From Thermoplasmatota archaeon (lineage in GTDB: Archaea; Thermoplasmatota; E2; JACPAO01; JAHFTW01), in the NCBI GenBank assembly GCA_038046725.1, contig JBBSVQ010000007.1:18409-82408 (forward strand): 64,000 nucleotides of DNA. The letters run 5' to 3'. The notes below the pieces were generated by a model. It did not search any database, was not told the origin of the DNA, and saw only the letters and a list, made by a program, of their open reading frames with translations. Position 1 is the first letter of the stretch. Every line of letters begins with the position of its first letter. This document shows positions 40,020-51,394 of this stretch, piece after piece. The position numbers and the translations under genes are program-made.

Positions 40020-41489
<1,470 letters not shown>

Positions 41490-41707: not shown

Positions 41708-41780
41708 GGGCTCGTAGCTCAGCTGGTAGAGCACCCCGTTTGCAACGGGGTGGCCTCGGGTTCAAATCCCGACGAGTCCA
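41708..41780 (+). tRNA. tRNA-Ala (anticodon UGC) in the 16S-23S spacer
   Basis: gggctcgtagctcagctggtagagcaccccgtttgcaacggggtggcctcgggttcaaatcccgacgagtcca. G3:U70 identity pair, anticodon loop UU-UGC-AA. Confidence 0.95.
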
Positions 41781-42065
41781 TGGGAGCAATCCCAGCCTGG
41801 ACCTCGCAAGAGGTCCGCGACAAATCCAAAATCCGTCTGCCATGCAACTCATGGTCGACGGGAACACCCTAGGCGGCCTGTCAAGACAGCAGGCATGTCC
41901 CGCACGTCAGTGCGTGGATCGCCGATGAAGGTGGTCGGTGCAAAATGTCAGCCCGTCGATGCCCTTTGGGGCGTCGATGCGGCTGATGCCGCATCGACGT
42001 GCATACGCAGCCTGGACTAAGCAGAGTGCCGAAGTCAATTTTATTAGAGTTCGACTTCAGGAATG

Positions 42066-44945
<2,880 letters not shown>

Positions 44946-45103
44946 ATGACTGAATGTCCGATCTAGGAGAACCGACTTCGGTACTCTGCTTCCAAAAGGC
45001 TGCGTATGTATGCGCAGATTCCACAGATTGCAAAACAACATTCCGCAGATTGATTTCTGCGAAATCGTTGGTCCGCGATCTGCGAAATCTGTGCTTCACA
45101 CTC

Positions 45104-45229
<126 letters not shown>

Positions 45230-45371
45230 TCCCTCTCCATCCCTTCGGGGTTGGGGAGGTTAGGCTCCGGCCGCAAGGCCGGGGTCTTCCTATCCATCGT
45301 CCAGGCTGCAATCACCCTGGATTCCTTCCCCCTTGCATCTCGGTCGAGCCACGAAGGCTCCCCTTCCCACC

Positions 45372-48300
45372 ATGGCGGTCCTCCGCTACTGCCCCCACGG
45401 CAACCTGCGCTCCACGTGCCCTCAGTGCCGGGGCGATGTCGTCGCGGAGGCCGAGACCCGAGCCGCCGCCAACCGCGCCCGTGGCGAGTCGGGCAGCATG
45501 GGCCGCATCGAGGGCGCCGAGCTGCACTATCCTTGGCAGCGCTCGGCCTTGGAGGCTTGGACCGACGGGGGCCGCACCGGCCTCGTCGCCTTCTCGCTCG
45601 GACTGCCGACCGGCGATCTGCCCTACGCCGTCATCGCCGACATCGTCAACGCCAGTCCCACGTCGAATGTCCTGGTCGCATGTGCTCCCAGCGAGTCCGA
45701 GGAGATGCGGTCCACGCTCGAGGGCCGGTTTGGCCTGCGGCCCACGGCCCTCGTCGACCACCACTTCCTTGAGCCGCGCAACGACGGTGCCCTGGTCATT
45801 GCCGACTTGCAGGAGCTCGAGACCATCGACGTCTCCTCGTGGGGCCGCTTCGCGAGCAACGGCCTTCTCCTTCTGTTGGACGCGGACGGCGTCACGCAGG
45901 GTCTTGGTGCCCACCTCGTCGAGGCGCAGTTCCGCCACCGCTTCTGCCTGAGCCGCCAGCCCAGCGCCATCGACCTCCTGTGGACCCGCCCTTGGGCCCG
46001 CGCCTTCGGTCCCCTGCTGTTCCGCAGCACGGAGGAGGAGGCCCGCGACCTCGGCATCCTGCCGCGCATCAAGTACAGACTGCACGTCGAAATGCTCAAG
46101 CCGGAGGCCCGCGGCAACTCTGGCTTCGGACCGGAGGGGCCGTGGGAAGCCGCGGACATCCCGACGCGCCTCCCGGCCCTGCAAGCAGGGCCGTTCATCC
46201 GTAGCCGCGCCCGCGACGTGGCCATCCGCCGCGCCAAGGAATCGCCGGACCTTCTCGTCATCCACGACGGCGTTCCCGTGCCAGGTGCCCAGGCAACCCT
46301 CAAGCTCTCGGAGCTTCCCGACAAGCGCGATCCGGCTCCGGCTGCTTGGGTCCTCGCCACGCCGACGGCGGACGGCAAGGCCATCCTGCGTCTTGCAACC
46401 GTGGCCTTCAAGACCATCGGGCAACCCGGTGCCATTGGCGCCGTGGAGGACGCCGTCGTTCTGCCCGTCCCCGTTGACCTGTGCCGTCAGCCGCCATGGA
46501 GCGACCAGTGGCGCATGGCCGCCAACCAGCTTGACCGCGTCGCGGCGGGCCTCTTGCTGGCCACGGATGTCAGCCAGGCGATGATGGTCGAGGACCTCGA
46601 GTCCCTCGTCGGCGTTGCCCTTGCCTTGCGCGGCATTCCCGCGGAGGAACTCTACAAGCTCACGCCCGTCGTCGCCGAGGCCGCCCAGGCTGCGCATGCC
46701 GGCGAATCGATTGCCCCCGACCGCGTCCGCGCCGCGGCACGCTCGGCCGGCGGCCTCGCTGCGTCCCTTCTCGTCGCCGCCGAATCCGGTCCTCTGCACC
46801 TGCTTCGCATCGCGCATCCGCGCTTCACGCCCGTCGTGCCCGACCTGCCGCATCCTAGCCTATACGATGCGCGTCGGCACGCGTGGCGCGGCCGGGCCTT
46901 CGCCGCCCTCGCAAACGCAGCCAAGGCCGCCGACCTGGTCACCGCCTGGGGCCGCTACCCGGAGCTGCGCTTCGTCTTCCCGTCCTCCGCCTTGCTCGAG
47001 GCCGCCACGGCCTACTGCGCCAAGCACAAGCTGCGCGGCCCCCTCGATGACGAGGAGTTCAAGCCCATCCCGGACAAGACGGCCATCGCCAAGGGCGACC
47101 GCGCCGGCGCAGCCGCCGTCCTGAAGGAATGGAACGACGCCCTGGTGCTCGCCGAGGAGCACGAACGCGAATTCCTGGCGGACATGCACGCCCGCCAGCC
47201 CGAGCGTGAGCGCCGCCGCGAAGGCGCCGCCCTGCCCAACGTGTACGTCGTGGACCGCAGCCCGGACGCCATGACGCTTGAGGCGCAGGAAGGCCGCTTC
47301 CCACCCACCAACATTTCCCCCGGGTCCGAGGTCGCCCTCGTGGAGATTGGCCTGCGCGACGAGCTGTGCCGCGGCATCGTGTCCAAGATCAGCCGCCGGC
47401 GCATCGTCATCGAGTTCCCGGCGGGCGCGCCACGGCACCGCATGCCGCCCAAGCTCACCGTCAACCTGGTCTTCGATGCCAAGGTGTTCGAGGCCTACCA
47501 CTCGGCGGTCCTCGGGGCGCAGCGCGCCCTCTCGGCCACGACTCCAGTGGACGACGGCCCGGACGGCCTGCTGCGCGCCGCCCTCCTTGGCGAGTCCGAC
47601 CCGCCCGAGTCCATTCGCCAGTCCCTCCGGGGCGGCTCCCTCACGGATTCGCAGCGCACCTCCATCAACCAGGTCCTGTCGGGCGGCCGCGTCCGCCTCG
47701 TGCACGGCCCGCCCGGCACCGGCAAGACGCACACCCTGGTGCACCTCGCCCTGGCGCTCGCCCGCGCAGGCCACTCCGTTCTCGTCACGGCAGATTCCAA
47801 CGCCGCCGTGGACAACCTCGTCGTCGGCTTGCGGCGCAACGGCGGCCTCGCGGTGCGCATCGGACACGCCGTCAACCTGCGTGACGAGGCGGCCGAGGCT
47901 GCGCGCATCGACCCCATGGAAGCCCCGCCCTTCGTGCGCTGGGCCGCCCAGCAGGGCATCATCGTCGCCACGACGAACTACGGCGCCTTCCGCTACATCG
48001 ACCCCAAGGGCGGCATGAGCCCCTTCGTCTTCGACTACGTCATCCACGACGAAGCCGGGCAGGCGACGGCGCCGTCCAGCCTTGCCGCCGTCATGCGCGG
48101 CCGCCGCCTCGTGCTCGCCGGCGACCCCAAACAGCTTCCCCCGACGGTCGTCTCGATGGATGCCAAGGAGGCCGGCCTCGACGTCACGTTGTTCGAGCGC
48201 ATCGAGTCGCTCACCGGGCGCACGCGCACGCGCATGCTCGAGACGCAGTTCCGCATGCGGACGGAGATTGCCGCATTCAGCAATCTCCGTTACTACGAAG

Positions 48301-49643
48301 GAAAACTCAAGACGGACGAGAGCGCCGCGAAGCAGGAAGGCCTGCCCGACCTGCCTGCCGCCGCATTCCAGCACGTCACCGGGCGCGAGAACGAGCGCCA
48401 ACGCAACGGCTCCATCTCCAACGACTTCGAGGTCGCCTGCGTCGCCGACCTCGTGGAGAAGTTCACGCCGGCCTGCCGCGAGCAGGGCTGGACGATGGCC
48501 GTGCTCACGCCGTACCAGGCGCAACGCGAAGCCATCCGCCGCCGCCTGCCGGACACGGAAGTCTCCACGGTCGATGGCGCGCAGGGCCGCGAATGGGACG
48601 TCGTGCTGTACTCGACGGTGCGTTCCAACCCGCAGCACCGCCTCGGCTTCGTCGAGGACGAGCGCCGCCTCAACGTTGCCGTCACGCGCGCCAAGCGCAA
48701 CTTCATGCTCGTCGGCGATGAGCGCACCTTGGCCGACAACGACGCCTTCCGTTCGCTGCTTTCGACGCTCGGCAAGGTTCGCCTGCACTATCCGCCCCGC
48801 GACGCGCACGGCCGTGACCAGCGCGGCGCCCCGTTGCCGCCGCAGCGCCACCAGGCGCCGCAGGACGGCGGATTCGACGGTGGCCGCCGCCGGCGCCGCC
48901 GCCGGCGCGGCGGACGCGGCCGCGGCGACGACGTGGGCGGCCCCGAGGAAGGCATGCCGCGTCCGGCGCCCGGTCCGACGTACAGTCCGCCGCCGCGCCA
49001 AGCGCAGCCCGCACCGCAGCAGCGCCCGGACGATCGCCAAGCCGCGCCGCGCCGCGACGAGCGCGCGCCGCAGCGTCAGCGCCCCGATCCGCGCGTCGAT
49101 CTCCCACTGCCCGAGTTGCCCACGGGGCCGCGCCCCGAGCGGCGCAAGTTCGTCGTGGGCGAAGCCCACGACGCGGCGCAGCCGCCCGATGTGTCACCTG
49201 AACCACAGTCTTCGGCATCGCCCGCCGCAAAGCCGGCGACGCCGGAACCGTCCCTGCCAATGCGTCCGTCGGCGCCTGCCATCCCCTTGGCGGCCAGCGA
49301 CGACCGCCCCGTCAAGGGCAAGCGGTCGGCCAAGGCAGCCAAACCCGGATCCAAGTCAGGCCGGGCCGGCACCAAGTCCGAAGCGCCCGTCGCTGCCGCT
49401 GTAGTGCCGACGGCCGCCAGGCCGAAGGCCGCGGGCAAGGCTCCCAAGGCGGCCAAGGCCGACGCGCCGACGGACAAGCTTGCCGGGAAGACGGGCAAGC
49501 CGGAGAAACCGGCCAAGGCTGCGAAGGCCGCGAAGCCGGCCGCGGGCAAGGGCGGGCTGTGCGCTGGAGCAACGCAGGCCGGCGGCGCTTGCAGGAACAA
49601 GGCGCAGCCCGGTTCCCGGTTCTGCGCGCGCCACGCCGTCTAA
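45372..49643 (+). CDS. Giant multidomain helicase: Zn knuckle, degenerate SF2/ResIII-like module, Upf1/IGHMBP2-like SF1 helicase (AAA_11/AAA_12), RGG and AKP-rich tail, C-terminal CCCH knuckle
   Basis: VHGPPGTGKTH (Walker A), IHDEAGQ (Walker B), LAGDPKQLPP, TQFRM, LTPYQAQ, VDGAQGRE, RRLNVAVTRAK. The N-terminal region has PWQRSALEAW plus LPTGDLPYAV in place of a P-loop. Tail has GGRRRRRRRGGRGRGDD and KAAKAAKPAAGK. Ends CAGATQAGGACRNKAQPGSRFCARH. Confidence 0.85.
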   Translation: MAVLRYCPHGNLRSTCPQCRGDVVAEAETRAAANRARGESGSMGRIEGAELHYPWQRSALEAWTDGGRTGLVAFSLGLPTGDLPYAVIADIVNASPTSNVLVACAPSESEEMRSTLEGRFGLRPTALVDHHFLEPRNDGALVIADLQELETIDVSSWGRFASNGLLLLLDADGVTQGLGAHLVEAQFRHRFCLSRQPSAIDLLWTRPWARAFGPLLFRSTEEEARDLGILPRIKYRLHVEMLKPEARGNSGFGPEGPWEAADIPTRLPALQAGPFIRSRARDVAIRRAKESPDLLVIHDGVPVPGAQATLKLSELPDKRDPAPAAWVLATPTADGKAILRLATVAFKTIGQPGAIGAVEDAVVLPVPVDLCRQPPWSDQWRMAANQLDRVAAGLLLATDVSQAMMVEDLESLVGVALALRGIPAEELYKLTPVVAEAAQAAHAGESIAPDRVRAAARSAGGLAASLLVAAESGPLHLLRIAHPRFTPVVPDLPHPSLYDARRHAWRGRAFAALANAAKAADLVTAWGRYPELRFVFPSSALLEAATAYCAKHKLRGPLDDEEFKPIPDKTAIAKGDRAGAAAVLKEWNDALVLAEEHEREFLADMHARQPERERRREGAALPNVYVVDRSPDAMTLEAQEGRFPPTNISPGSEVALVEIGLRDELCRGIVSKISRRRIVIEFPAGAPRHRMPPKLTVNLVFDAKVFEAYHSAVLGAQRALSATTPVDDGPDGLLRAALLGESDPPESIRQSLRGGSLTDSQRTSINQVLSGGRVRLVHGPPGTGKTHTLVHLALALARAGHSVLVTADSNAAVDNLVVGLRRNGGLAVRIGHAVNLRDEAAEAARIDPMEAPPFVRWAAQQGIIVATTNYGAFRYIDPKGGMSPFVFDYVIHDEAGQATAPSSLAAVMRGRRLVLAGDPKQLPPTVVSMDAKEAGLDVTLFERIESLTGRTRTRMLETQFRMRTEIAAFSNLRYYEGKLKTDESAAKQEGLPDLPAAAFQHVTGRENERQRNGSISNDFEVACVADLVEKFTPACREQGWTMAVLTPYQAQREAIRRRLPDTEVSTVDGAQGREWDVVLYSTVRSNPQHRLGFVEDERRLNVAVTRAKRNFMLVGDERTLADNDAFRSLLSTLGKVRLHYPPRDAHGRDQRGAPLPPQRHQAPQDGGFDGGRRRRRRRRGGRGRGDDVGGPEEGMPRPAPGPTYSPPPRQAQPAPQQRPDDRQAAPRRDERAPQRQRPDPRVDLPLPELPTGPRPERRKFVVGEAHDAAQPPDVSPEPQSSASPAAKPATPEPSLPMRPSAPAIPLAASDDRPVKGKRSAKAAKPGSKSGRAGTKSEAPVAAAVVPTAARPKAAGKAPKAAKADAPTDKLAGKTGKPEKPAKAAKAAKPAAGKGGLCAGATQAGGACRNKAQPGSRFCARHAV

Positions 49644-50230
49644 GGTGCCTTTCGTTCCTTGACGAGGCGCCGGACCTTGCGTCCCACGGTGACGATGACG
49701 AGAAGGACACTTGGCGTGGCGGCGATGTAGCCGAGAACCAGGCTGCGCGATTCCTCCTCGAGGTACCGGATGGTGATCTGAACGCTTACGGCCCCCTGCG
49801 TCGGTCCCGTCAAGTCAGGCACCGTGTCGTTGCTGTAGTGGTTGTCGGAGTTGTCGAAGACCAGGAGGTACTCGGTGACGCCGTCGGACAGCAAAGCGAA
49901 GACGGCTTCTCCGTCCACCCCGATGCGCGAGTGCTCGGCGTAGTAGCTGAACGGCTGCTGCAGCGACAGGCGGCCATTGTCGGCCAGGGAATCGGACCAT
50001 TCTTTTTCCATGACGTACAGGTCGAAGGCGCCGCCCGTGGCGTGGACCTCGATGGCGATGGGGGTGCCAGCAATGGTCGGTTGCAAGGTCGTCTGGCGGG
50101 CCTCCCCCGGCGCAAGTTGGAAGGCGGGGGCGCTGTCGACCTTCAGTTCGTTGTCGGGGTCGTAGTAGATGAGCGCGAAGATTGCGCCGAAGACGGCGAG
50201 GCCGACGAGGGCAACGGTGAGACGGATCAC
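49640..50230 (-). CDS. Bitopic/double-anchored membrane protein, function unknown
   Basis: GTG at 50230 overlaps the upstream stop (GTGA). N-terminal TM (LTVALVGLAVFGAIFALI), about 140-aa extracytoplasmic beta-rich domain, C-terminal TM and basic tail. Confidence 0.55.
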   Translation of the reverse strand: MIRLTVALVGLAVFGAIFALIYYDPDNELKVDSAPAFQLAPGEARQTTLQPTIAGTPIAIEVHATGGAFDLYVMEKEWSDSLADNGRLSLQQPFSYYAEHSRIGVDGEAVFALLSDGVTEYLLVFDNSDNHYSNDTVPDLTGPTQGAVSVQITIRYLEEESRSLVLGYIAATPSVLLVIVTVGRKVRRLVKERKAP

Positions 50231-50586
50231 GGCGACCCTCCGCCCAACCAATTGCCGGATTCCGGTTGCGCGCCGCGCTGGCCCCGCTCGACGTCGCGGT
50301 CGCTGGCGCAGGTGCGGCACAGGCGAAGCATGATCCACAGATCAGCCGCACAGGCGGCCCGGCCACACATCGCGCACGTGCCGCGCGCGGGGCGGGTGGC
50401 GCACAAGGAGCACATGCCGTTGCTGGCCGCGTTGGAGGAGGGCGGGGGCTCGACGGCCTGCGTCTGTGCGTTTGCCGGCTTGCCGGCTGCGCGGCGTCGC
50501 CGTTCCTCCTCGAGGACGGCCGCAGGGTCGGTGGATTTGGCGCGGCGGCGCAAGTCAATCAGTGACTCGTCGTCAAGCAGGTCCAT
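50227..50586 (-). CDS. Small Cys-rich (zinc-ribbon-like) protein
   Basis: CSLC...CAMCGRAAC...LCRTC gives eight Cys in about 45 aa. The N-terminal half is acidic/basic and low-complexity. Starts 2 nt after the carS stop. Confidence 0.5.
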   Translation of the reverse strand: MDLLDDESLIDLRRRAKSTDPAAVLEEERRRRAAGKPANAQTQAVEPPPSSNAASNGMCSLCATRPARGTCAMCGRAACAADLWIMLRLCRTCASDRDVERGQRGAQPESGNWLGGGSP

Positions 50587-50587
50587 G

Positions 50588-51289
50588 TCACCACCAGACT
50601 TCCTTGAGTTTCAGGACGTATCCGAGGACGTTGACGAGGAAATGCAGCAGGGGCGTGAGGACGATGAGGGTGGCGAGCACGACCCAGTCGTCGAGCAGGG
50701 CCGCCTTGACCCAGCCGTCGGCAAGCAGTGGGCTCGCGATGGCCATGGCCAACAAGCCGAAGACGACGAAGTCGAGTTGGTCGAAGGGCACCCAGGGCCG
50801 GCCGCGGTCCCGGCCGGTGCGGCGCTTGAAGTAGGATTTCACGGCGTCGCCGACGAGGGCCATGAAGCCGACGAAGGCACCGAAGAGGGCGATGGCCCAG
50901 AGGGGGGAAGACGGCGGTGCGGCGCATATGGCGGCGATTGGGTCAGGCGTGTCGTTGCAGGGTTCGTCGGAGCCGATGGGCGCGCCGTCGAAGCCGTTGT
51001 ACCCGTAATCCCAGCCGTCCCAGAGGCCGGCGGCATCGTAGGGGGGGACAAGGAGTGCCACCGCGACGGCGGTCGCCGCACCGAGCAAGGTGCCGCCCGC
51101 GAGCCCGCGCCACGTCTTGCCGGGTCCGAGCAGGCGTTTGCCGTCCTTGCCGAGCCGTCCGCCGTCGATGGGCGCCTTCCAGCCCGGGATGAGCTTGGCG
51201 ACGAGCACGGGACTCATGTTCGCCACATAGGCCGGCAGGAACACGAGCAAAGCGTGCAGAATTGAGGCGACGACCATGCCCGGCCGCAT
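50588..51289 (-). CDS. carS: CDP-archaeol synthase CarS (start uncertain: 51289, 51316 or 51361)
   Basis: LPAYVANMSPV...PGKTWRG...GDAVKSYFKRR...PFDQLDF are the CarS/DUF46 motifs. It contains an insertion of about 45 aa (PPYDAAGLWDGWDYGYNGFDG...). Confidence 0.8.
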   Translation of the reverse strand: MRPGMVVASILHALLVFLPAYVANMSPVLVAKLIPGWKAPIDGGRLGKDGKRLLGPGKTWRGLAGGTLLGAATAVAVALLVPPYDAAGLWDGWDYGYNGFDGAPIGSDEPCNDTPDPIAAICAAPPSSPLWAIALFGAFVGFMALVGDAVKSYFKRRTGRDRGRPWVPFDQLDFVVFGLLAMAIASPLLADGWVKAALLDDWVVLATLIVLTPLLHFLVNVLGYVLKLKEVWW

Positions 51290-51394
51290 CCACGAGACCC
51301 CGTCAATTAAAGGCATCAGGGACCGGCCGGAGGCCCTCCCTGACCCTGGCGCACCCCACACCTTTTATGGGGCCAGAGGTGAGACCGCCCGAGC

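Follow-up and report, generated by a model that had tools for sequence, protein, structure and literature searches.

Which function is served by a large helicase gene that lies directly behind the 5S ribosomal RNA (rRNA) gene of an archaeon? We addressed this question for a gene at positions 45372 to 49643 of a 64,000-nucleotide stretch of Thermoplasmatota DNA (contig JBBSVQ010000007.1, positions 18,409 to 82,408; the whole stretch is called the window below), which is archaeal and has a G+C content of 66.6%. A preliminary description made from the sequence alone had proposed a helicase of about 1420 residues, in which a catalytically dead superfamily 2 (SF2) module precedes a live superfamily 1 (SF1) core. 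It favoured a role in RNA or ribonucleoprotein (RNP) metabolism over one in defence. The protein consists of a CHCC knuckle, a pseudo-SF2 helicase, a helical domain, an SF1B motor with stalk and 1B domain, a basic disordered tail and a CCCH knuckle, in this order (Table 1). We give about even odds (probability roughly 0.5) to the reading that it is a lineage-specific multidomain 5′-3′ RNA or RNP helicase, in which the pseudo-helicase has a docking or regulatory task and which is probably linked to rRNA or the ribosome.

Results and discussion

A single gene encodes the whole protein

The open reading frame (ORF) is uninterrupted from 45333 (TTG) or 45372 (ATG) to its end and encodes 1423 residues, in good agreement with the size initially proposed. 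The ATG at 45372 (MAVLRYCPHG) is common to all orthologues and was taken as the start, because conservation does not extend into the in-frame stretch upstream. The same single ORF of about 1200-1490 residues was present in 14 loci of other genomes and in 45 database orthologues, so the gene is not split into two. All sequence strings quoted in the preliminary description were found in place in the protein: CPHGNLRSTCPQC (residues 7-19), PWQRSALEAW (54-63), GLPTGDLPY (77-85), LLLDADG (167-173), GSEVALVEIG (651-660), CRGIVSKISRRRIVIEF (666-682), GPPGTGKT (779-786) and DEAGQ (893-897). In one database entry, P0002, residues 1-48 are a junk peptide (MCSFFVFFFSSRRRHTRCSRDWSSDVCSSDL...) preceding the true start.

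The C-terminal core is an intact SF1B motor

According to its sequence, the region from residue ~575 to 1130 is an intact SF1B Upf1-like helicase of the IGHMBP2 type with a 1B barrel, and the presence of every motif, as originally claimed, was borne out by Pfam, TIGR00376 and PDB matches. Pfam AAA_11 (5e-35, 121.9 bits) and AAA_12 (6e-48, 163.4 bits) both exceeded the 27-bit cut-off. The NCBIfam model TIGR00376 (IGHMBP2 family helicase) matched at 1e-83, yet its 281.9 bits did not reach the curated cut-off of 348.9. Among PDB sequences the core matched IGHMBP2, Upf1, Sen1 and DNA2 at 1e-30 to 1e-49. The best solved structure was IGHMBP2 (4b3g, 3e-49), and further matches were Upf1, DNA2 (3e-36), Sen1 (5mzn, 2e-31; 8ram, 5e-30), ZNFX1 and nsp13. 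Motifs I (GPPGTGKT) and Ia (TADSNAAVDN) were invariant in 15 aligned orthologues, and motifs II (DEAGQ), III (GDPKQLPP), V (TVDGAQGRE) and VI (NVAVTRAKR) were at least 90% conserved in the same set. Each orthologue contains one conserved Walker A motif, which is always the GPPGTGKT of the SF1 core.

Residues 644-839, including the 1B barrel, aligned to residues 77-272 of IGHMBP2 4b3g, which identifies the beta-barrel-like insert noticed earlier as the 1B domain. In the AlphaFold2 (AF2) model described below, strands at residues 624-638 follow a long helix, with modest model confidence in this part. The helix probably represents the N-terminal stalk of the SF1B core, its register relative to IGHMBP2 being derived from the 4b3g alignment. 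From the properties of the family we infer 5′-3′ polarity for the motor.

The N-terminal half contains a dead XPB-like SF2 module

Residues 1-623 gave no Pfam or NCBIfam match even at E 10, including ResIII, Helicase_C and ERCC3_RAD25_C, and profiles of residues 40-255 and 256-625 retrieved nothing from PDB sequences. Altogether, the N-terminal half is covered by no Pfam, NCBIfam, PADLOC or PDB-sequence entry. A profile of the N-terminal region obtained eight matches among 1.84 billion representative proteins, seven of which were orthologues or their fragments. The eighth, P0013 (E 4.5e-6 with hmmsearch), is a live SF2 helicase of 448 residues with ResIII and Helicase_C domains. Its relatives are actinobacterial 'DEAD/DEAH box helicases' that carry ERCC3/RAD25-type matches and are therefore XPB-like. 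P0013 and the module are 29% identical in a BLASTP alignment, and hhalign comparison of the two families resulted in a probability of 96.6% (E 5.9e-10) over residues 53-245.

This alignment allowed a direct comparison of the helicase motifs. The lead-in motif is retained (PWQRSALEAW versus PWQREALAAW in the P0013 family). The Walker A motif ATGTGKT is represented by SLGLPTG, motif II DECH by LDAD, and the region of motif III and the RED motif, LSATPERADDG, by LSRQPSAID with SRQ instead of SAT, so that both the RED motif and the SAT/TAT motif III are replaced. In the family as a whole PWQR..AW is kept, Walker A has become GLPxGDL, DExH has become (L/T)(D/E)AD and SAT has become SRQ. A conserved Walker A was absent from the N-terminal half of every orthologue. 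At the sequence level, these replacements demonstrate that the module has lost the SF2 catalytic motifs GKT, DExH and SAT. The earlier assignment of a dead ResIII/SF2 module with a retained Q-motif-like PWQRSALEAW, including the positions of the P-loop and the DEAH box, was thus confirmed by hhalign; neither an intact P-loop nor, up to E 10, a known Pfam domain was found in the N-terminal region.

An AF2 model of residues 1-640 built from a 46-sequence alignment reached a mean predicted local distance difference test score (pLDDT) of 79.7 and a predicted template modelling score of 0.74. An earlier model based on 6 close sequences (pLDDT 48) was unusable, and its Foldseek SF2 matches all had E > 0.05. 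With the improved model, Foldseek found 199 PDB matches at E ≤ 0.001, and the 50 listed of these were all SF2 helicases and remodelling ATPases. The top match was archaeal XPB (6p4w_A, E 4.1e-8, 405 columns), followed by TFIIH XPB and XPB II; among the chains, 7egb_6 and 5tnu came after 6p4w_A, with 386-438 columns for the top matches. According to the aligned lengths (405-440 columns to XPB chains of 435-616 residues), both RecA lobes appear to be present, at about residues 50-245 and 272-376, and in the predicted structure residues ~50-450 adopt a two-lobed SF2 fold that most resembles XPB. Hence, the SF2 assignment stood, and the module turned out to be larger than claimed, with both RecA lobes followed by a helical domain. 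Residues 378-490 of this domain were modelled confidently, the following helical region less so. Residues 451-560 are the best-conserved stretch of the protein with 85% mean pairwise identity.

Several strings in the module are invariant and do not correspond to SF2 motifs (DHHFLEPRxDG, WGRFAS, PWxRAFGP and ARDxGxLPRIxYRL). In the dead RecA1 lobe, DHHFLEPRxDG is accompanied by the conserved (D/E)AD, and the acidic and histidine residues of both might create a new site for a ligand or a metal. A bolder variant would regard them as a new metal-dependent active site of the dead lobe. Three other motif candidates were considered. Assignment of DHH...DADG to the DHH-family phosphoesterases was set aside, since the motif order is reversed and sequence and fold evidence indicate SF2. 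TPTADGKA (residues 330-337) was rejected as a second P-loop: neither its G nor its K is conserved, the string departs from GxxxxGK[ST], and the corresponding BLAST segment had E 0.24. Placement of GVPVPGA on motif V (GIDVPEA) was the sole alignment from an hhalign comparison with 0.4% probability and was regarded as suggestive, not as evidence.

The dead module is conserved like the motor

A full-length search recovered 45 orthologue clusters with 62-95% identity and lengths of 1100-1445 residues. The next match was a bacterial IGHMBP2-type protein of 629 residues, 35% identical and restricted to the core. Database names of the orthologues are generic ('AAA domain-containing protein', 'ATP-dependent RNA/DNA helicase IGHMBP2', 'hypothetical protein'). 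Scanning one genome per GTDB species revealed 15 loci, 13 of which are labelled Thermoplasmata or Thermoplasmatota. The remaining two, L005 (CAZXUC010000031.1, 'uncultured Halobacteriales archaeon') and L006 (JAZJZE010000001.1, 'bacterium'), have the same helicase locus; the 16S rRNA of L006 is 95.9% and the 5S rRNA of L005 94.9% identical to that of the window. Both match Thermoplasmata-labelled loci, and by this comparison their taxon labels look wrong. Three loci had a 16S rRNA 95.9-96.8% identical to that of the window, and the value fell to 90.0% in the most divergent of the loci measured. As judged from these sequences, the family is confined to roughly one family-level clade of uncultured high-GC Thermoplasmatota.

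N-terminal segments of the orthologues showed pairwise identities of 69-85%. Ratios of non-synonymous to synonymous substitution rates (dN/dS), calculated with the NG86 method for eight pairs, were 0.07-0.21 for pseudo-lobe 1, 0.08-0.19 for pseudo-lobe 2 and 0.04-0.20 for the helical domain. The live core gave 0.02-0.23 and the tail 0.25-0.72. The substitution pattern indicates that the dead module is maintained by purifying selection like the live core, and because it is conserved as tightly as the motor it must do something.

Both ends carry putative zinc knuckles

The CxH...CxxC knuckle seen at the N-terminus in the preliminary description proved to be real, as its four residues are invariant. 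It is followed by a long helix (residues 17-37) in the AF2 model and had no significant Pfam match. At the other end, the basic tail contains a run of eight arginines and is poorly conserved (31% identity) except for its arginine runs and PRPERRxFVV. This short conserved motif inside a fast-evolving disordered tail may be a docking site for proteins. A knuckle of the type C-x2-T-x2-G-x2-C-x9-C-x2-H makes up the last 25 residues and is present in 10 of 13 aligned orthologues with a complete C-terminus. Sub-threshold matches were obtained to zf-TRM13_CCCH with the tail of the window protein (1e-3, 18.8 bits versus a cut-off of 20.9) and to DUF5763 with the orthologue P0040 (1.5e-5, 24.8 bits versus 26.3). 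Neither R3H nor zf-AN1 was detected in the protein with Pfam.

Table 1. Features of the helicase gene and its surroundings in the window (pLDDT, AF2 model confidence)
Feature	Position	Strand	Description and evidence
Complete coding sequence	45372..49643	+	1423 residues and TAA stop; single ORF in all orthologues
N-terminal CHCC zinc knuckle (C7, H9, C16, C19)	45390..45428	+	Invariant in 15 aligned orthologues
Pseudo-RecA1 lobe (residues ~50-245)	45519..46106	+	P0013 match, BLASTP, hhalign, pLDDT 83-95
DHHFLEPRxDG (residues 129-139)	45756-45788		Invariant
(D/E)AD (residues 167-173)	45870-45890		Conserved
Pseudo-RecA2 lobe (residues ~272-376)	46185..46499	+	AF2 pLDDT 82-94, Foldseek; predicted structure only
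All-helical domain (residues ~378-560)	46503..47051	+	AF2; no match in PDB sequences
Long helix before 1B barrel (residues 577-616)	47100..47219	+	AF2, pLDDT only 58-73
1B beta-barrel (residues ~624-700)	47241..47471	+	IGHMBP2 4b3g alignment from its residue 77
SF1 RecA 1A (residues ~750-930)	47619..48161	+	AAA_11; motifs I, Ia, II, III
Motif I GPPGTGKT	47706-47729	+	
Motif II DEAGQ	48048-48062	+	
SF1 RecA 2A (residues ~936-1130)	48177..48761	+	AAA_12; IGHMBP2/Upf1/Sen1 alignments; motifs IV-VI including TVDGAQGRE and NVAVTRAKR
Basic low-complexity tail (residues 1131-1395)	48762..49556	+	P/A/R/G/K-rich, net charge +27, pI 11.2
PRPERRxFVV (residues 1253-1262)	49128-49157		Conserved short motif
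C-terminal CCCH knuckle	49560..49634	+	Last 25 residues
16S rRNA	40020-41489	+	
tRNA-Ala	41708-41780	+	
23S rRNA	42059-44951	+	
5S rRNA	45108..45227	+	Last gene of the 16S-tRNAAla-23S-5S operon; Rfam RF00001, 86.5 bits
Structured spacer, 144 nucleotides	45228..45371	+	Fold -70.2 kcal/mol, z = -3.4 versus shuffles
Predicted hairpin	45232-45259	+	
Hairpin with stable GC stem	45262-45287	+	
Hairpin with CCUGGA	45299-45322	+	
Hairpin GAGCC/GGCUC	45346-45360	+	
232-residue ORF	49640-50338	-	In only some relatives
CarS-like CDP-archaeol synthase homologue	50588-51361	-	Convergent; in most related loci

The fusion differs from known helicases

The best match of the core, including 1B barrel and stalk, is IGHMBP2/Smubp-2 (4b3f, 4b3g), which likewise has a motor followed by C-terminal nucleic acid-binding additions ending in a zinc finger. 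In the archaeal protein a disordered basic tail and the CCCH knuckle stand in place of R3H and AN1, and IGHMBP2 lacks any 575-residue N-terminal extension bearing a pseudo-SF2 helicase. With XPB/Rad25/ERCC3 (archaeal XPB-Bax1 6p4w, 5tnu; P0013 family) the protein shares the two-lobed fold of residues ~50-450 and, in the first lobe, alignable sequence including PWQR..AW and the lead-in to the RRG strand. Unlike XPB, the archaeal module has Walker A, DExH, SAT and RED replaced and is fused to an SF1 motor, and neither a damage-recognition domain nor a Bax1 partner was seen with it.

Upf1 (CH domain), nsp13 (ZBD), ZNFX1 and Aquarius belong to the same motor family and have an N-terminal zinc-binding or scaffold module before stalk and 1B, and the N-terminal domain of Upf1 regulates the motor in cis. 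The accessory module described here is a degenerate SF2 helicase and not a CH, ZBD or ARM domain, and no sequence similarity to these four proteins was found outside the core. Inactive helicase modules serve as scaffolds in the C-terminal Ski2-like cassette of Brr2, in RecC of RecBCD and in AddB of AddAB. As in these cases, a dead helicase fold is kept under selection beside a live motor; there, dead and live modules share a superfamily, whereas here dead SF2 and live SF1B modules reside in one polypeptide. Sen1/senataxin has a similar Upf1-like core (2e-31), and its action on nascent RNA at heavily transcribed loci would fit a position at the end of an operon. However, it is not the closest core relative, its N-terminal domain differs, and no link to RNA polymerase was seen here. 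The defence helicase MkoA of Mokosh and others share the SF1B core (MkoA, 1e-72). The MkoA match is core-only, no nuclease or partner gene was seen, and the archaeal gene has a fixed core-genome position with apparent vertical inheritance.

Literature on helicases, IGHMBP2 and Thermoplasmata did not describe the protein, although no search was aimed at the fused architecture as such. The initial statement that the architecture is undescribed therefore stands as far as Pfam, NCBIfam, PADLOC, PDB-sequence libraries and this literature tell, and the combination of a dead, XPB-derived SF2 module and a live SF1B motor of the Upf1/IGHMBP2 type in one polypeptide was not found described. In important machines such as Brr2 and RecBCD, a dead helicase fold next to a live motor is known to have a regulatory role. 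With one weak match among the representative proteins searched, the dead module is nearly an orphan in sequence space, which shows how fast a helicase fold diverges once freed from catalysis. Its significance is limited by the narrow, uncultured clade and by a function deduced from sequence.

The gene position hints at a possible link with rRNA

As described initially, a 5S rRNA gene lies just upstream on the same strand; the spacer measures 144 nucleotides and not 143. In all 18 loci with upstream sequence, a same-strand 5S gene directly precedes the helicase at a distance of 89-183 nucleotides, also in loci with a 16S rRNA only 90% identical to that of the window. In L017 and L018 the contig end retains only the 3′ part of the 5S gene, and many contigs are broken inside the rRNA operon, as expected of a repeat-like region. 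The helicase is 69-83% identical among loci compared with 49-72% for the neighbouring CarS. Since it is more conserved than CarS and the similarity rankings of the loci broadly agree for both proteins, inheritance looks vertical and housekeeping-like, as for a core gene.

In the mechanism that we propose, only the SF1B core would bind and hydrolyse ATP and would translocate 5′-3′ on single-stranded nucleic acid like Upf1, IGHMBP2 and Sen1. The pseudo-helicase would no longer be a motor and would be retained as a docking or cis-regulatory module, comparable to the CH domain of Upf1, the inactive Brr2 cassette or RecC. Basic tail and terminal knuckle might add non-specific RNA affinity and thereby substitute for the R3H and AN1 domains that IGHMBP2 has. 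The most likely target would be RNA or an RNP connected with the production of rRNA or ribosomes, because the gene is fixed on the same strand after 5S, behind a structured spacer, and shows housekeeping-like conservation. IGHMBP2, the closest characterised relative, has reported connections with both translation and the pre-rRNA factor ABT1 (PMC11109757, PMC9977310). The preference for an RNA or RNP role over defence in the preliminary description is plausible, and the strict placement after 5S provides a concrete and testable connection of an archaeal helicase of the IGHMBP2 type to ribosome production, a field that is little characterised.

Several points weigh against this reading. Upf1-like cores also act on DNA, as do DNA2 and, in vitro, IGHMBP2, and XPB is a DNA translocase. 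The pseudo-RecA2 lobe has no sequence signal (hhalign probability 0.4% for residues 256-625 against the XPB-like family). Downstream CarS is syntenic as well and the clade is narrow (16S 90-97% identical to the window); synteny of the entire neighbourhood within a shallow clade makes the linkage to 5S no more than suggestive, and the conserved adjacency may reflect nothing but shared ancestry. Finally, a TATA-like pattern was found neither in the spacer nor upstream of 16S, which makes this search uninformative on promoters and terminators.

A speculative extension of the rRNA-linked reading, which we rate as improbable, regards the helicase gene as a protein-coding tail to the rRNA operon, with an mRNA that would arise by read-through or processing across the spacer, and the protein would then act on pre-rRNA or rDNA. 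If true, the amount of helicase would be coupled to rRNA synthesis, roles in ribosome assembly, 3′-end processing or termination would be conceivable, and the dead XPB-like module would be a new kind of docking platform for RNPs or polymerase.

Alternative functions

The best of the competing explanations, though clearly less probable than an RNA or RNP helicase with a docking module, is a Sen1-like transcription-coupled helicase at the rDNA. It would track nascent RNA 5′-3′ and, where the very heavily transcribed operon ends, clear R-loops or displace RNA polymerase, with the XPB-derived module holding duplex DNA or the polymerase. The gene occupies precisely the 3′ end of the operon in 18/18 loci, the 5S gene is followed by GC-rich hairpins and pyrimidine tracts, the strong core matches include Sen1 structures, and the dead module descends from XPB, which translocates on duplex DNA and belongs to the machinery of transcription and repair. 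However, the closest core relative is IGHMBP2 and not Sen1, and the position of a gene tells nothing direct about where its protein acts. Moreover, SF2 motif Ia, a nucleic acid contact, is not conserved: P71, Q78 and W79, invariant in the P0013 family (VVPT..LQ.QW), face non-matching residues.

Somewhat less probable still is a DNA repair or replication helicase in the style of DNA2 or XPB, for which adjacency to rRNA would be a historical accident in a young clade. The match of DNA2 to the core and the descent of the N-terminal module from a repair helicase agree with this, and the syntenic downstream genes would mean that the whole neighbourhood is simply conserved. On the other hand, the protein has no nuclease domain, and no Pfam nuclease was detected among the called genes of L001, L017 and L019-L021, although several of these genes have no match at all. 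The XPB-like part is devoid of any catalytic motif and of the RED motif, and a basic tail with a CCCH knuckle occurs more typically in helicases that bind RNA.

An anti-phage defence helicase of the Mokosh, Hhe or ProA type is very unlikely. The PADLOC model MkoA matched at 1e-72 and the NCBIfam models ProA, Hhe and PLuB matched in part; the best MkoA stretch, however, covers only residues 862-1123 (model positions 771-1082 of 1112), and the other models, including MkoC, Hhe, ProA and PLuB, fall within residues 757-1130 of the generic SF1B core and leave the N-terminal 750 residues unmatched. Neither a fused nuclease nor a PLD/MkoB partner was found in the immediate neighbourhood in L001, L017 and L019-L021, where the called neighbours include CarS, DUF2238, rhomboid and lipid-synthesis genes along with several genes that have no Pfam match. 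Defence genes are typically patchy and mobile; the helicase is a single-copy gene that keeps the same core-genome position across the 18 loci, surpasses CarS in conservation and shows strong purifying selection over its entire length.

That two adjacent genes were merged by an assembly or frameshift error, or that the N-terminal half is untranslated, can be dismissed as judged from the comparative sequence data, which already refute it: one database call (P0005) is shortened and starts internally at residue ~284, yet the frame on its contig continues ~280 codons upstream to the shared start, the identical continuous ORF occurs in the 14 independent loci and 45 clusters from differing samples and assemblers, and dN/dS is 0.07-0.2 in the N-terminal half.

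RNA elements between 5S and the start codon

The spacer matched no Rfam family even at permissive thresholds. Apart from the hairpin closest to 5S, three hairpins were predicted. The second, a very stable GC stem (GGCUCCGGCCGCAAGGCCGGGGUC) located 35 nucleotides past 5S, is followed by a pyrimidine tract, and many relatives have a CCUUUUCC-type tract in their spacers. According to the predicted fold, this hairpin may be the terminator or a processing stem of the rRNA operon. The third (UCCAGGCUGC...CCUGGA) recurs in relatives with variable loop length, and its 5′ arm CCAGGCUGC, which pairs with CCUGG, is conserved in most loci.

The fourth, GAGCC/GGCUC, has the fixed base GGU(C/U)GAGC...GCUCC(C) and lies 12-45 nucleotides ahead of the start codon. 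It was also found in the spacers of L002, L005, L010-L013, L015, L017 and L019. Its inner pairs vary yet stay complementary, the fifth pair being C-G, U-A, G-C or A-U. This covariation was read directly from the sequences, as MAFFT/RNAalifold misaligned the 3′ arms and was uninformative. With its compensatory changes the hairpin looks like an RNA element, for example a regulator in the 5′ untranslated region, a processing site or a terminator.

A Shine-Dalgarno-like GGAG/GAGG is located 7-10 nucleotides before the ATG in 12 of 17 loci (L002, L003, L005-L014). None is present at 45361-45371 of the window or in four other loci. In about nine of the 12 the predicted fold pairs GGAG/GAGG with an upstream CUCC, which is the same sequence as the 16S 3′ end (the 16S rRNA of the window ends ...GGAUCACCUCCU). 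This predicted pairing suggests translational control by occlusion.

Downstream neighbours

Downstream of the helicase, the 232-residue ORF on the opposite strand overlaps the stop codon by 4 nucleotides. Insertions between the helicase and the convergent CarS gene vary among the relatives.

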